DNA of 64,000 bases from assembly GCF_013167455.1 (NCBI RefSeq), contig NZ_CP038328.1. The stretch is one strand, 5' to 3'. Below, in pieces: positions 57,001-63,000 of this stretch; the first letter of the stretch is position 1; every line of letters starts with the position of its first letter. This DNA is from Escherichia coli O157:H7 (GTDB taxonomy: Bacteria; Pseudomonadota; Gammaproteobacteria; Enterobacterales; Enterobacteriaceae). A program made the position numbers.

Positions 57001-60000
57001 GAAGATAAATTCAGTGTTGGGATTAGTAACTATAGAGGCGAATTACCAATCTTCATGAATTTAGATAAGATTACGGAAACAAAAAGGATTGAGGATTTTT
57101 TATATGATTTAACAACAGATTTTTTCCATATGAAAAATTCAGTTATGTCAAAACTATTAAAACACTTTCCGTCAAAATTCGATGTTAGGTCAGAAAGGAC
57201 TAACAGCTATATAGAACTTAATGCTAGAAGATTCAGATATACGTTAGGAAGTCGACTGGCTAATGAAGGAGCCTCAATTGAGGTGATTGCTAAAGCGTTA
57301 GATCATAAATCAGTAAACTCTTCTATAATATATATAAAAAATAATCCTGACAACGTTTATGACATCGATAAGAGACTAAGTGCGTTTTTTAACCCCTTAT
57401 CTAATATACTTATGGGCATAGAGATTGAAGAAAACAAGAACTTTTTTATCAAGTTTGTTTCAGATGCATTTTTCTTATTGGAAGATACGAAAGAGGATTT
57501 GAAATGTTTAACGTGTAAAAAATTCAATCCCTGGAGAGCATTATGAACAATATATTTATTTTTGAACCAAGCAATAAAAACAACCCTCTCGATAATGTTA
57601 TTAAGTTTATCGAGTTTTGTAAGAGTACTATTTCTAATAATAATTTAACAACTTCATGGGAAAGCAATAAATGGAAAGGTTTATATAGGTTTACTAAGTT
57701 TAACTCAAAAAACAACCTAAACAGCAAGGAGTGCTTAGATGATAGCTTTATTAATTTTGCTAAAGCATATATGTTGCATGTGCATTCATTCAATAAATCT
57801 AAGACGAAACACTCAACATTATCAATGTTGAAGATTGTCGAATTCGTTTTACTTAAAATCAATATGGAAGCTAATGTAAACTATTGCAACAATTCAATCT
57901 ATGATGAATGCATAAGGATAGCCTCTGAAAAGTATTCTAAAGCACATGCATTTGCTATTGGGAAAGAACTTGAGAAATTGAGTTCATTTTTAAATGATAA
58001 TAGGATGACTAACTCATTTTATTTATTTTGGGTAAATCCAATTAGGTATAGGATTACTCAGTCTTGGACTGGTTATGATTCTTCACTGGAAGGCCATTCT
58101 AGATTGCCTGATATCAAATCAGTTATTGCGATTGCTGAGATTTTTTCAAAGCGGGATGAACAATTATCGTCAAGAGATATATTTACTACATCTGTGCTTG
58201 CTTTACTTATGTGTGCACCGAGTAGGATATCGGAAATTTTAGCTTTGCCAGCGGATTGTGAAATCACAGAATGTGATGGAAAGGGCATTCAAAGATACGG
58301 TTTAAGATTTTTTTCAGCAAAAGGGTATGAAGGCAATATAAAATGGATTCCAACTTTAATGATACCTGTAGCTAAAAAGGCTATTAGCAGATTAAAAGAA
58401 TTATCAAGTCAAGCGAGGTTATTGGCTGCTGAAATTCAAAAGAATTACTCTAATTCAACGAAGGGAACCCTTAAAGAAAATATACCTCCTGATCTCTTTT
58501 GGTATGATAGAGAGAAGAAAATCAAATATTCTAATGCGCTTTGCTTGTTAACTGAAGGACAGTTAAATCAAAATAAAAAGGAAATGTCAGATAAATTATT
58601 CAGACCTACAACGAATTTTTTTAAAACTGATATCATTGATTCTGATTATATAAAAGGGTATTTTAATGTTTTTAAAAGACATGGTTATATAAATGAAGAT
58701 GGTAGCCCATATTTGCTAAGAACACATCAACTAAGGCATCTTCTCAACACATTTGCTCAAATAAATGGTATGGATGAATTTAGTATTGCTCGCTGGTCTG
58801 GACGTAAGCTTATTTCTCAAAATGTTTCTTATGACCACAGATCGCATCTTCAAATGTCTAAAGCAATAAGAGAAAAAAAGTTATCAGTATGTGTTAATGA
58901 GCACAGAATAAAGGATATTCCAGTAGTGGATCTTAATGAGTTTGACTCACTTAGTAGTGGTGCAGTACTTGTATCAAAACATGGCTACTGCAAGCACTCA
59001 TATGCGTTTAAGCCGTGTGATAATTATCCAATTAAGAACTCTGGTTTAGATAACGAAACGATTTCAAATATCCACGATAAAATTTTAAAAAGAACACTGT
59101 ATGATAAAAATGATGGGAACATAAATGCTGATAAATGGTATGAATTCCATAAAAAAATAAAAAAAGGAGAATAAATGGCTAAGCATATAAATGGTTATCA
59201 TGAGAAGAAGATTGTAGATGTTATTAACACATGGTCTATAGATGAAAAACTAACCTGGAATGCTTTGTGCGATAGGTTAGTCAGGGTTATTGGGAAAAGA
59301 CCATCAAGACAATCCTTAAGTAGTCATGTAAGGATTGCGGAAAGCTTCAATGTGAAAAAAACCACAATCAAATCTGGTGTAATACACACTGTAAAACCTG
59401 CTAATTTAAAAGTGGCTTCTCAACGAATTAAAAGACTTGAAGCAGAAAATGAAGCTTTGAAGGCATTAAATGAACGCTATTTAGAGCAGTTCAAAGTATG
59501 GCTTTATAATGCTCACCTTAAACAAATAACGATTGAAGAACTTAATAATCCGTTACCTGCAAAATACCTTTAATAAAATTGATAGGTTTTAGCTATTGAC
59601 ATGGTGAAATATTATGTTATTTATTTTCTTGTCAGGACGACAAAATTTCACTATTGCAAGGATGCATATTATGGACAAAACAAATATTAACTTAATGGAA
59701 AGGTATCTTCTTCTGCTTGATCGATTCGTTGATAAACTCGCTGAATCAGGTTTCTCAGAGCAACGAATTATCGAACAATCATATCTTTTTTGTGCAGGAT
59801 TTTATATCAAATACCAGAGTGGTATAGAAAAAATGACCTTCTCCAACAGGGAGGTTGTTTTAACCTTTCTGCTACTTTCATATTATAGTCATATAAATAA
59901 ACTGGATGATGATTTGATCAACAAAGAGCGTATGAAGCATGTATGTTCTTCATTGATTAACTTTATAGTCAGTAATGGTAGCCGAACAGAGAAAGTCTAT

Positions 60001-63000
60001 GCTAATGAGAAAAGGAAATATGAGGCTTCAACTCTAAAAAGAGAATTATCGAAAAAGGATAAAAGGAAAAGATATAGGTTGTAGTGTTTGTATGATTTTC
60101 ATTAGACTTACTTAATCTATAGTCTAAATTTTAATATTAGATTCGTAAATCTATAATTCCATGAATCTAATTAATGCTTAAAAGCATCCTCTAAGATGCT
60201 TTTACTGTTACCATGCATACATACCCAGAACCTTTAACAAACGATAATAGAGGGGAGTTGTGTATAACAACTCCCTGACCTTACTAAGGTTAGCGATGTT
60301 ATTCAGCATCATTCTGTCAAAGATTTAATTTCTTTGAAAAATACTAATTCTACCCCTTAAGTTAATAACTTCTGCTTGATCGTGTATTTTGGTAAGTTGG
60401 AGTACAATTTTTTGATTGGATCGTCAATAAGAAAAAGCTAGAATCCTTAGAAGGACATAGATTTTCATAGGGTTAAGATATGACGATTGCGAAGGATAGT
60501 TCGACTGATGAAATCATTCATGGAAATGATCTCCGTGGAATGGATGATTTTTACATTAAGACAACGAGTTTTGAATGCCCATACGAGCCTTGTAAAATTA
60601 AAGCCACACCTTGTAGTTTTACTATGAAACATGTTAATCAATCATATTTCAGATATGGCGATAAACATAAGGATGGATGTGGTATTCATGATCCAAGATA
60701 TAAAAACAATCATACTTCAAATGACGAAAGAAAACATAATTCGCCACCTGCTCCGGTTATATCACTTTTAAAAATTGATGTGAAACCAAGAGGTGGTGTT
60801 AAAAATGCCAGAAATATTAAAAATGAAAATCACAAGGATGAAAAAAAAGGTAATGAACATCCTGTATCTTCATCAAGTATTAAGCCAGTCGTTGACTATT
60901 ACATAAATAATAGCAATCATAATGAACAGCTATCAATCCCTCCATATGGCACGCGATCTTATAAAGATACATTTCAACTTATTTTTTACAAAAACAACAT
61001 ACGTTATTACAAACCTGCTATTTATTATGGTGTAGCCCAGTCTAATATTCGTCTGCATGAAGATTCAGATAAACATTGTATTACTTTCCTCGCAAGGGAT
61101 AAGAAAACCCAAAAACCATTTACGCTTGAAATTGATGTTTCTGACTGGAATAAAAGTCAGAAGGATGTGTTTTGGAAGGAATATGAAAAGCAAAGGAAGG
61201 AAGCTGATAGGTATTATAAGGGGCTTAAAGATAAAAGGAATGCTAAAAAATACTTGACGGTTTTCTTTTTTGGGATGCCGGATGAAAATGATAAGTTTCT
61301 ATTTAAGACAAACCACTTTAAATTAGTATATGTGGCTTTCTTGGGTAAATTTGAAAGCTCATATAATGATAGTAATTATTACATTGAAAATGATCTGTCT
61401 GTATCATCATTGAATGAACAACCCATTTCATTATCTGATATAGACCATAAAAATCATGAATATAATATTGAAACTTCATTAGATTTTAGTTCTCCTTTGC
61501 CAGAGCCAGAGCCAGAGCCAGAGCCAGAGCCAGAGCCAGAGCCAGAGCCAGAGCCAGAGCCAGAGCCAGAGCCAGAGCCAGAGCCAGAGCCAGAGCCAGA
61601 GCCAGAGCCAGAGCCAGAGCCAGAGCCAGAGCCAGAGCCAGAGCCAGAGCCAGAGCCAGAGCCAGAGCCAGAGCCAGAGCCAATAAGATCCTCTTTAAAG
61701 GAAAATACTGAGACTGTAGAAATGAACAGTAAAGTTTGGGGGAGGCTGAAAAAGATAATCACTTTCTTTAAAAAGTGATTTATGTTTCTGTAAAAAGCCC
61801 GTAGGTATCAACTGCGGGCTAAATTTTCCCTTGATGCTGGTTTTGTCTTTTATCTAAAAAATGCCAGTCTTCACGTTGCTTGTTCCAGCATTAAAGATGT
61901 ATGTGCTGACTTTTTCGCCTTTGAAAGAAACTGTCAGAGATTTAGTTTGTGAGTCTGCGCCACCTGCAAGCAGTCCCACAACGGGGATGAAAGAGGTTGC
62001 TTTGGACTGGCTGTTATACATAGTGTATGACCATTGTTCTTCACCATCGATCAAAGAACGGCTGTCAGGTTCACCGAACGATGCTAACACGTCCTGTTTT
62101 GTAGTTTTGCCTTTAACAATTTTGGTTTTCACACTTTCCTGCGTCTCATTTTTCAATGACTGGTTGCCTACTGAAGAACAACCTGCCAAGGTCAGAAAAA
62201 CGAATCTATATGAGAGTTTTTTGTACCTGAGACTAAATCGCCCTCCCAATGCCCTAGAGAGCGTCTGTTATCGATATTTCGGGAACGTTCGTGAATTGGT
62301 GTTCCGTTCACTATGTTAATCGTACCTCTTTCGCCTTTGCGGGTATGACGCCTGCCATGGCGAAGGCTATGCGACCGTCGCAGATGCTGTATATTCAGGT
62401 GGTGTAGCGCTTCACGGCTACGAAAGTACAGCGTTTTATAAATTGTCTCAGGTGATATTCGCAGCGTTTTTTGACGTGGTTTTGTTCGCCTTAACCATCC
62501 TGATATTTGCTCTGGAGACCATTTCATCTCCAGCTTTTCCAGAACAAGCTTTCGCAATGGTAAATTTTGATCCAGTAAGCACGGTTTTGGCCTTTTCGCC
62601 ATTCTGTTGGCTCGGTTATTAGCATCAACAGCTTTGTAATAGCGTCTGCCCCGATTACGCTGAACTTCACGTGAGATCGTCGAAGGACTGCGATTCAGCG
62701 CAGTAGCTATCGCACGAATGCTCATTTTGGCTGACAAACCAGCTCGTATCTCCTCGCGCTCAGACAGTGTCAGGTGAGCTACAGCCCGCTTACGCTCATG
62801 GGGTTTTATGCCGCCAGTATCCCTTAACATAGTGAAGATCGTTCCGGGTTTTGAACCCAGGATATTCGCTATTTCACTGAAGCCTGTTCCGTTCTTCCAT
62901 AGTTCAAAAACAGAGGCTTTTTCCTCTGCTGTAAATGTTCGTCTCATTCAAAAAACCTCCGCAACCCCATGTTTTCACATAACTGTTGCGTTGACCAATT

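Follow-up and report, generated by a model that had tools for sequence, protein, structure and literature searches.

Two genes beside a ginABCD recombinase module in an Escherichia coli O157:H7 genomic island: a conserved small protein and a long-form member of the PD-Lambda-4_B/Avs8B family

Two open reading frames downstream of a recombinase module

We analysed a window of 64,000 nucleotides from the chromosome of Escherichia coli O157:H7 (NCBI RefSeq assembly GCF_013167455.1, contig NZ_CP038328.1). Two uncharacterised open reading frames (ORFs), ORF1 and ORF2, lie in it on the + strand, directly 3′ of a three-recombinase module that corresponds to the ginABCD operon of GInt elements. The original prediction, made from the sequence by itself, had placed both ORFs on the strand of the recombinase genes and had given them the same low GC. 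This was borne out: GC drops to 0.30-0.34 across ~55 kb to 61 kb, from the recombinase genes through the two ORFs. The 3.2 kb around both ORFs shows 100% identity to many O157:H7 chromosomes. The annotation of strain Sakai assigns the region to the left end of "prophage Sp17", beside the ypjA autotransporter gene, and lists the counterparts of ORF1 (ECs_3508) and ORF2 (ECs_3507) each as a "hypothetical protein".

ORF1 (59671..60084, +) encodes 137 amino acids. A length of ~140-156 amino acids had been predicted. In the 156-amino-acid reading, which begins at 59614, the N-terminal extension contains in-frame stops in Klebsiella and Enterobacter homologues, while the starts used by RefSeq and by the homologues are at 59671 (137 amino acids) or three codons upstream (140 amino acids). 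The true ORF1 is therefore the 137- or 140-amino-acid form; the lower predicted length fits the conserved starts and the upper one does not.

ORF2 (60480..61778, +) encodes 432 amino acids, as predicted. Among its residues, counts are highest for E (52), P (48), K (45), S (33), N (30), D (28), I (25) and Y (23). The ratio of nonsynonymous to synonymous substitution rates (dN/dS) against orthologues in other genera was 0.125 for ORF2 and 0.10-0.18 for ORF1, indicating purifying selection, and homologues of both were full length down to 22-37% identity. Because of these low ratios and the full-length distant homologues, we regard both ORFs as genuine coding genes and not as untranslated AT-rich spacer. 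The maximal hydropathy over 19 residues was 0.74 for ORF1 and 0.78 for ORF2, with no signal peptide or transmembrane segment in either.

ORF2 is a divergent member of the PD-Lambda-4_B family

No motif had been assigned to either ORF in the original prediction. That remained so for ORF1, for which Pfam, NCBIfam and PHROGs gave no credible match, but not for ORF2. The PADLOC profile PDLC03992 (PD-Lambda-4_B) matched ORF2 with E = 1.9e-7, residues 151-284 being aligned with positions 161-294 of the 303 in the profile. An exhaustive phmmer search with ORF2 gave 65 representative clusters, mostly of ~300 amino acids and aligned over residues 1 to ~290. All ten of these relatives that were scanned with PADLOC matched PD-Lambda-4_B, nine of them over essentially the full profile, and the E-values of these intermediates were 1e-46 to 1e-92. 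These full-length matches of its relatives place ORF2 in the family as a divergent member of full length. A scan of a genome collection with a narrower family alignment found five loci, and a third, profile-based homologue search added little (word-index limit).

Other sequence searches gave little. For ORF2, Pfam, NCBIfam and PHROGs returned only repeat-driven matches, that in Pfam being the trypanosome procyclin repeat, and no helix-turn-helix domain was detected in the Pfam scans. A profile search of Protein Data Bank (PDB) sequences with the ORF2 family gave no match. A tblastn search of 50,697 phage records found no relative of ORF2, and a blastn search of E. coli genomes with an Avs8B-like gene gave no match.

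The family is named after a component of a defence system. PD-lambda-4 has been renamed Avs8, in which Avs8A is a STAND NTPase with an Mrr nuclease that senses phage major capsid proteins (bioRxiv 10.1101/2025.07.02.662641). Avs8B, encoded by the second gene of the operon in E. coli ECOR07, has no recognisable similarity to described proteins, is dispensable for defence against lambda, confers no defence by itself and was not hit at all in a transposon selection (bioRxiv 10.1101/2025.07.02.662641). Avs8B belongs to the same family as ORF2, which aligns from end to end with the proteins that match the family profile over its full length and has the zinc-site residues and conserved aromatic residues described below in common with them, although the identity of ORF2 to Avs8B-like members is just ~20-25%. 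ORF2 differs from the ~300-amino-acid Avs8B form in an extra C-terminal module of ~120 residues, a (PE)n tract with a basic tail. It also differs in location. Unlike the gene in the Avs8 operon, it lies in a GInt-type island beside ginD and ORF1, and no Avs8A STAND NTPase was found in the flanking genes scanned with PADLOC; its neighbours are ginD and ORF1, a lipoprotein gene and IS30.

A conserved zinc site and a predicted OB-fold-like core

In an alignment of 56 family sequences, the only invariant columns were C33, C38, H63 and C67. These four residues make up a predicted CCHC zinc-binding site (60576..60680, +) in the N-terminal domain (residues 1-75), and the N-terminal cysteine cluster of the original prediction corresponds to this site. 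Near-invariant residues (>= 90%) were F57, Y161, F165, W223, F262, F263 and G265; M1 and A4 were near-invariant as well. The absence of acidic, basic and Ser/Thr residues among the near-invariant positions argues against an enzyme.

Structure prediction with AlphaFold2 and this alignment (pLDDT 83, pTM 0.79) gave a confident model with an N-terminal zinc ribbon, a disordered linker and a second domain. The N-terminal domain was modelled with a pLDDT of ~90. In the second domain, an OB-fold-like core was predicted at residues ~180-289 (61017..61346, +), with the order strand-strand-strand-long helix-strand-strand. The only PDB folds recovered with the model were of OB-fold types, namely SSB, RPA, telomere end-binding proteins and HIN domains, which have a strand-strand-strand-helix-strand-strand core like the one predicted for ORF2. 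An OB fold is also paired with a zinc ribbon in RPA70 DBD-C and in the N-terminal domain of MCM. A Foldseek search of AFDB50 placed the family in Proteobacteria, Bacteroidota and Actinomycetota; nearly all of the matches were named "uncharacterized", and the few other names were repeat-driven or incidental.

Kinship of the zinc ribbon with CoiA_N or DUF7830 was considered and dropped, since the statistics were not significant. The CoiA_N zinc ribbon (PF25164) matched one of the 56 members weakly and not significantly (7.2e-3), and an hhalign comparison with a DUF7830 protein aligned the same C..C...F.H...C pattern with E = 0.07.

A C-terminal module of variable length

After the predicted core, ORF2 carries a (PE)n tract of 61 residues and then a basic tail of 31 residues, in agreement with the ~60-residue spacer and short basic tail that had been predicted. 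The tract is encoded by an in-frame variable-number tandem repeat (VNTR) of the hexanucleotide GCCAGA, present in 30.7 copies at 61499..61682 (+) with 100% matches in Tandem Repeats Finder. On the opposite strand, a (GS)n ORF (61454-61762, -) and an (AL)n ORF (61486-61683, -) are by-products of the repeat and not genes. Alternating Pro-Glu tracts, expected to be extended and rigid, are also found in TonB and in trypanosome procyclin, and the likeness of ORF2 to these proteins is compositional only.

Throughout the subfamily of the O157 protein, the linker is a PE repeat encoded in each case by a pure hexanucleotide array: GCCAGA in Enterobacter (5 copies), a Pantoea sp. (10 copies) and Yersinia (20 copies), and GCCTGA in Erwinia (8 copies) and P. 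ananatis (3 copies). Among 5,426 complete E. coli genomes, the ORF2 locus was present in 314, mainly O157:H7 and O55:H7. The lengths of the locus in these genomes differed only by multiples of 6 bp, from ~8.7 to 53.7 copies. Because the unit is 6 nucleotides, slippage never breaks the frame, and each step lengthens or shortens the spacer by two residues. Lengths also differed between genomes for an E. coli paralogue of 61% identity, located 5′ of QatABCD: an identical query range spanned from 3870 to 4288 bp, and its UniProt forms range from 385 to 532 amino acids. From this variation in length, repeat expansion in the C-terminal linker seems recurrent in the subfamily.

A second variable hexanucleotide repeat, TATTTC in 11.8 copies at 63024-63094, lies 1.4 kb from the GCCAGA array. 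Among the loci used in multiple-locus VNTR analysis (MLVA), Vhec1 (also TR2 or O157-10) has a 6-bp unit and is the most variable, with 21-45 repeats in one study, and 6-23 repeats have been published for VNTR-9. By unit size and copy range, the GCCAGA array very probably belongs to the classical O157 MLVA loci; a search of the literature by repeat sequence and locus tag matched no named MLVA locus to GCCAGA or TATTTC.

At the end of the tail lies a short cationic-hydrophobic segment (61734..61775, +), a putative amphipathic helix that may bind the membrane or a partner. About half of the aligned family are long forms, in which the globular part is followed by a linker of low complexity and then by a short end segment rich in Lys/Arg and large hydrophobic residues. 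All 17 long forms examined ended in such a tail, with a net charge of +2 to +9 and a hydrophobic moment of 0.40-0.71. The C-terminal membrane-targeting helices of MinD and FtsA are likewise short cationic-hydrophobic segments that follow a flexible linker. In hydrophobic moment the ORF2 tail (0.55) comes close to the FtsA tail, but it has no homology to the MinD and FtsA helices and its amphipathicity was unsupported by shuffles.

Relatives of ORF2 lie in accessory DNA of mobile elements

We compared ~17 genomic contexts of ORF2 relatives. Close relatives (49-98% identical to ORF2) were found directly 3′ of ginD in four loci of a divergent GInt lineage, and 5′ of QatABCD and CBASS in an island of E. 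coli. Yersinia has one on an island next to smpB, where it is divergent from a MobQ relaxase gene and near PARIS-like genes. In Providencia, a close relative lies 3′ of a type I restriction-modification (R-M) system.

Distant relatives had more varied surroundings. Three lie 5′ of GAPS4, of a gene for an 1831-amino-acid helicase and of HsdR/McrBC, respectively. Another is in the integrase-proximal region of a P2-like prophage, flanked by genes for HNH and DUF7830/DUF6035 proteins. Distant relatives were also found within a conjugative-transfer cluster on Vibrio plasmids of the pVA1 type and on a V. maritimus plasmid, ~7 kb from a MobF relaxase gene in Acaryochloris, and amid toxin-antitoxin genes on Rhodococcus plasmids. 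On pVPE61a of Vibrio parahaemolyticus, a pVA1-type AHPND plasmid of a shrimp pathogen, the member has 375 amino acids and its gene lies between traF/lytic transglycosylase genes and H-NS/coupling protein/MobC genes; synteny is the same on the V. maritimus plasmid.

On the Pseudomonas aeruginosa megaplasmids pBJ86 and pPAG5, a relative is convergent with an identical multi-gene recombinase module, and the cargo beyond the Avs8B-like gene differs between the two (CBASS versus three dynamin-family genes). The proteins of this module have 697, 653, 168 and 456 amino acids. The Avs8B-like gene of pPAG5 is truncated at its 5′ end by a UvrD-helicase fragment. A relationship of this module to the gin genes was considered and dropped, as the similarity was that of tyrosine recombinases in general. 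The context shared by the relatives is accessory DNA of mobile elements, often at the edge of a mobility module, and no defence partner recurs.

The island and its ginABCD module

The recombinase module (55020..59573, +) consists of four closely packed ORFs of 403, 441, 543 and 132 amino acids: ginA (55020-56231), ginB (56221-57546), ginC (57543-59174) and ginD (59175-59573). The 403- and 441-amino-acid proteins matched tyrosine recombinases in NCBIfam. The 543-amino-acid protein, in the position of ginC, had no match in NCBIfam, PADLOC or PHROG; the dN/dS of its gene against orthologues in other genera was 0.10-0.17. The 132-amino-acid protein, in the position of ginD, had no NCBIfam match. 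It has a heptad-like, coiled-coil-like C-terminus (RIKRLEAENEALKALNERYLEQF) and is 43% identical to its Pantoea counterpart. The module is identified as a GInt-type ginABCD operon, with which its gene order and sizes agree (PMC5385486; PMC10214605). As in the published GInts, three recombinase-like genes and a small coiled-coil gene stand at the 5′ end, and variable DNA begins soon after ginD (Bardaji et al. 2017, PMC5385486). Excision and integration of GInts require all four gin genes, and cargo begins directly 3′ of ginD (PMC5385486; PMC10214605). GInts are present in 7.5% of Escherichia replicons (PMC10214605). Further hallmarks of GInts are a recombinase-like GinC without part of the catalytic motif, an AT-rich 3′ end, imperfect direct repeats at the flanks and excision as a circle.

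At its left end the island has a gene for an AlpA-like small regulator (54497..54703, +; Sakai ECs_3513). This gene (PF05930, Phage_AlpA) also lies 5′ of the gin operon in six independent contexts, which share the order DUF6387, AlpA, ginA-D, ORF1. On the opposite strand 3′ of ORF1, these six have genes for a 221-amino-acid protein, a relaxase and a 145-amino-acid protein, followed by variable, defence-rich cargo. The enterobacterial clade thus has, in addition to the published GInt plan, DUF6387 and AlpA upstream and ORF1, the 221-amino-acid protein and a MOB-P-type relaxase downstream.

The same element as in O157 was found in Enterobacter genomosp. O GN03164 and in Pantoea sp. GD03673, where the proteins are 87-96% (gin), 96-97% (ORF1), 98% (ORF2) and 100% (lipoprotein) identical to those of O157. 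Homology of the O157 copy to the intact Enterobacter element stops at ~62206, at a partial IS30 transposase gene (62192..62947, -; "IS30 partial" in Sakai). The gene for the 221-amino-acid protein, the relaxase gene and all further cargo are absent from the O157 copy beyond this junction. On these comparisons, the left end of "prophage Sp17" is identified as a GInt-type mobilizable genomic island, with AlpA, ginABCD and ORF1, cut short by IS30. Because of the truncation, the 3′ end and the att repeats of the O157 copy are not definable. Our search for repeats flanking the cassette or the island gave none that was convincing, and an Rfam scan of 54.3-62.4 kb gave sub-threshold noise only. We are highly confident of these identifications for the locus as a whole.

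At the left edge, this strain differs from Sakai by a deletion of 1,922 bp with its junction at 54291 (5270-7191 of the Sakai locus). The deletion takes out the 3′ 751 nucleotides of ypjA and most of ECs_3514 (the DUF6387 gene), leaving a truncated ypjA frame that ends in unrelated residues. A further block of low GC (0.33-0.42) lies upstream of ypjA, at 44000-50000.

ORF1 as a candidate fifth backbone gene

Homologues of ORF1 formed 343 clusters, and the best 120 of these were 86-99% identical and spanned Escherichia, Salmonella, Klebsiella, Enterobacter, Serratia, Citrobacter, Photorhabdus and others. ORF1 came after ginD in all of the related islands that were examined. Between the O157-type element and the commoner type, ORF1 is better conserved than the recombinases: the identity is 87.6% for ORF1, 67% for GinA, 55% for GinB, 64% for GinC, 71% for GinD and 74% for the relaxase. 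A second, far more divergent GInt lineage was found in Pantoea ananatis, Erwinia, P. brenneri and Enterobacter cloacae, with gin proteins 28-44% identical to those of O157. An ORF1 homologue of 29-32% identity is present in both of its loci that reach that far (P. ananatis and Erwinia), so that ORF1 co-diverges with the gin genes in this lineage.

Searches with ORF1 against Pfam, NCBIfam and PHROGs gave nothing credible, with only two marginal Pfam matches to helical repeats. Its predicted structure is a helical bundle with a basic C-terminal helix. Both ORFs had been taken for cargo in the original prediction. Judged from its distribution, ORF1 is not cargo but belongs to the conserved backbone, as a candidate fifth gene in the enterobacterial GInt clade, and it would assist recombination or mobilisation.

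The backbone genes did not diverge equally. Between the Enterobacter and a Klebsiella island, the DUF6387 protein is 99.6% identical and GinA-D just 55-71%, and dS is 0.48 for ORF1 versus 2.4 for ginC. This unequal divergence implies a mosaic backbone with recombination between modules.

ORF2 on a 2-kb insert

When the Enterobacter island is compared with the Klebsiella island, an insertion of 2009 bp lies exactly between the stop codon of ORF1 and the stop of the gene for the 221-amino-acid protein. It contains a 395-nucleotide spacer, ORF2 and a convergent gene for a small lipoprotein, and is absent from sister islands. For ORF2 the label of cargo thus stands: it is an accessory gene on a discrete 2-kb cassette.

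The spacer (60085..60479), at the 5′ edge of the insert, is AT-rich with several hairpins, and its fold as single-stranded DNA is far better than that of shuffles (z = -4.1). Its conservation is limited to the same element (the Enterobacter and Pantoea copies), and a 96-nucleotide piece with the strongest hairpin (GGGGAGTTGT...ACAACTCCC, 60253-60275) is deleted in the Pantoea copy. The idea of a conserved regulatory or oriT-like element 5′ of ORF2 was dropped on these two grounds. An exact direct repeat of 14 nucleotides, CTTCTGCTTGATCG, has one copy within ORF1 (in the stretch 59685-59723) and one 5′ of ORF2 (in 60354-60382). Each copy adjoins a palindrome of the type TTAACTTAA, an arrangement that may be due to chance in AT-rich DNA.

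The lipoprotein gene (61854..62249, -; BamE-domain/SEN1984 family by RefSeq names) has had the start of its signal peptide (MKKIIIVGF..., Enterobacter MKKIIIVGFVFLTLAGC) replaced in O157 at the IS30 junction. In the divergent island of Erwinia, the corresponding place is taken by an unrelated lipoprotein gene. The lipoprotein is possibly of the exclusion type.

A possible role for ORF2 in mobile elements

Taking the family, the model and the contexts together, we see about an even chance that ORF2 serves mobile elements as a DNA-binding accessory protein without enzymatic activity, possibly tethered to the membrane. Our proposed mechanism for it is tentative, and we doubt it somewhat more than we credit it. 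ORF2 would be cytoplasmic and would bind DNA through its zinc ribbon and OB fold, the likeliest targets being single-stranded or nicked intermediates. The (PE)n tract would act as a stiff, extended acidic spacer with a length set by replication slippage, and the terminal cationic-hydrophobic segment would fix ORF2 to a partner or to the inner membrane. ORF2 would then act on the DNA intermediates of mobile elements, in transfer, establishment or recombination, and not as a component of a phage-defence effector. This mechanism fits the lack of catalytic invariants, the contexts with recombinase, relaxase or transfer genes, and the dispensability of Avs8B.

Several observations weigh against such a role. 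The globular part is not strongly basic (52 K+R, 47 D+E). The tail is missing from about half of the family, and its amphipathicity was not significant against composition-preserving shuffles. Many relatives lie immediately 5′ of defence systems (Qat with CBASS, GAPS4, type I R-M and McrBC, and the 1831-amino-acid helicase), and the flanking sequence available for them shows neither a recombinase nor a relaxase. The ~17 contexts are a small sample without a null expectation. Finally, in the intact Enterobacter element ORF2 lies 3′ of the relaxase operon, unlike a classical leading-region gene.

The relatives beside defence systems could also be read in another way, with ORF2 as a defence accessory (a sensor, regulator or adaptor) that was orphaned in O157 when IS30 removed its partner. 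The match to PD-Lambda-4_B is in keeping with this, as are the relatives immediately 5′ of Qat with CBASS, GAPS4, restriction systems and the giant helicase, or beside CBASS or dynamins. Their distribution resembles that of regulators shared among defence islands, such as the WYL-type BrxR/CapW, but no helix-turn-helix was detected in ORF2. The partner changes in nearly every context, so that there is no conserved one, and in the intact element of the O157 type the neighbours are ORF1, the lipoprotein gene and relaxase genes and not a defence system. Avs8B is itself dispensable for defence by Avs8A, and no transposon insertions were recovered in it. The original prediction had pointed out that cargo genes beside integrase modules often have defence, anti-defence or virulence functions; the family is indeed listed in a defence database, but a defence role is not supported by the one experiment on the family, in which Avs8B was not needed against lambda and conferred no protection alone. 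We consider a defence accessory unlikely.

In a related scheme, to which we give a lower probability and which we regard as very unlikely, ORF2 would be a stand-alone abortive-infection or exclusion protein, with the zinc ribbon and OB fold sensing invading DNA and the tail damaging or blocking the inner membrane. A predicted sensor-like nucleic-acid-binding domain joined to a cationic-hydrophobic tail would suit such a protein, and so would its home in defence-rich islands and the relative in an accessory hotspot of a P2-like prophage. The short members have no tail, however, and Avs8B alone gave no defence against lambda. The frame of ORF2 is also intact in ~300 O157/O55 genomes despite large changes in the spacer, which is not obviously what is expected of a tightly tuned toxin.

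There is a slimmer chance still that both ORFs are decaying remnants without function, trapped between the gin module and IS30. The island has been damaged: IS30 truncated it, the relaxase gene and cargo were lost, the signal peptide of the lipoprotein was altered, and 1.9 kb was deleted at the left edge in this strain. Both frames are nevertheless intact in ~300 genomes, dN/dS against orthologues in other genera is 0.1-0.18, and the frame is never broken by slippage of the 6-nucleotide unit. The analogy with TonB in the original prediction, taken as an envelope-spanning or secreted protein of TonB-like or virulence type with the PE spacer across the periplasm, is scarcely credible, for although the long Pro-Glu tract has a suitable composition (the sole Pfam match was the Trypanosoma procyclin repeat) and a lipoprotein gene is next door, ORF2 has no N-terminal signal peptide or anchor (maximal hydropathy 0.78) and no TonB C-terminal domain in Pfam, most relatives have no spacer, and cytoplasmic proteins are where a CCHC zinc site of this invariant kind is typically found.

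The reading of ORF2 as an accessory protein of mobile elements can be extended to the family. Avs8B-like zinc-ribbon/OB-fold proteins would then be a widespread, so far unrecognised class of mobile-element accessory proteins and not defence components, a generalisation that we consider improbable at present. The family would stand where recombinase or relaxase modules give way to variable cargo, and its members would bind the single-stranded or nicked DNA intermediates that arise in conjugative transfer or in strand-biased "copy-out" recombination. In the long forms, a spacer of adjustable length would keep this DNA at the membrane. Such a class would explain both the dispensability of Avs8B and the presence of the family beside many unrelated defence systems.

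Significance

The two genes have long been annotated as hypothetical, the ORF2 family already had a name in a defence database, and no new kind of system is described here. What is new is the assignment of ORF2 to its family, its zinc-ribbon/OB-fold model, the description of long-form members with spacer and terminal helix, and ORF1 as a conserved fifth gene. We also suggest that proteins named "Avs8B" belong to the backbones of mobile elements rather than to defence systems.

For strain typing, a hypervariable repeat of O157:H7 is placed in a defined domain architecture, in which its copy number sets the length of a protein spacer. For GInt biology, ORF1 is a candidate fifth core gene in the enterobacterial clade. 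For the family of ORF2 a structure is proposed for the first time, one that combines a CCHC zinc ribbon with an OB fold and may also carry a spacer and terminal helix, and intact elements have been identified that are tractable for testing. PD-lambda-4_B may be part of a mobile-element backbone. If so, defence calls based on it would be inflated or mislabelled, and a real accessory function of islands and plasmids would be hidden behind the name.

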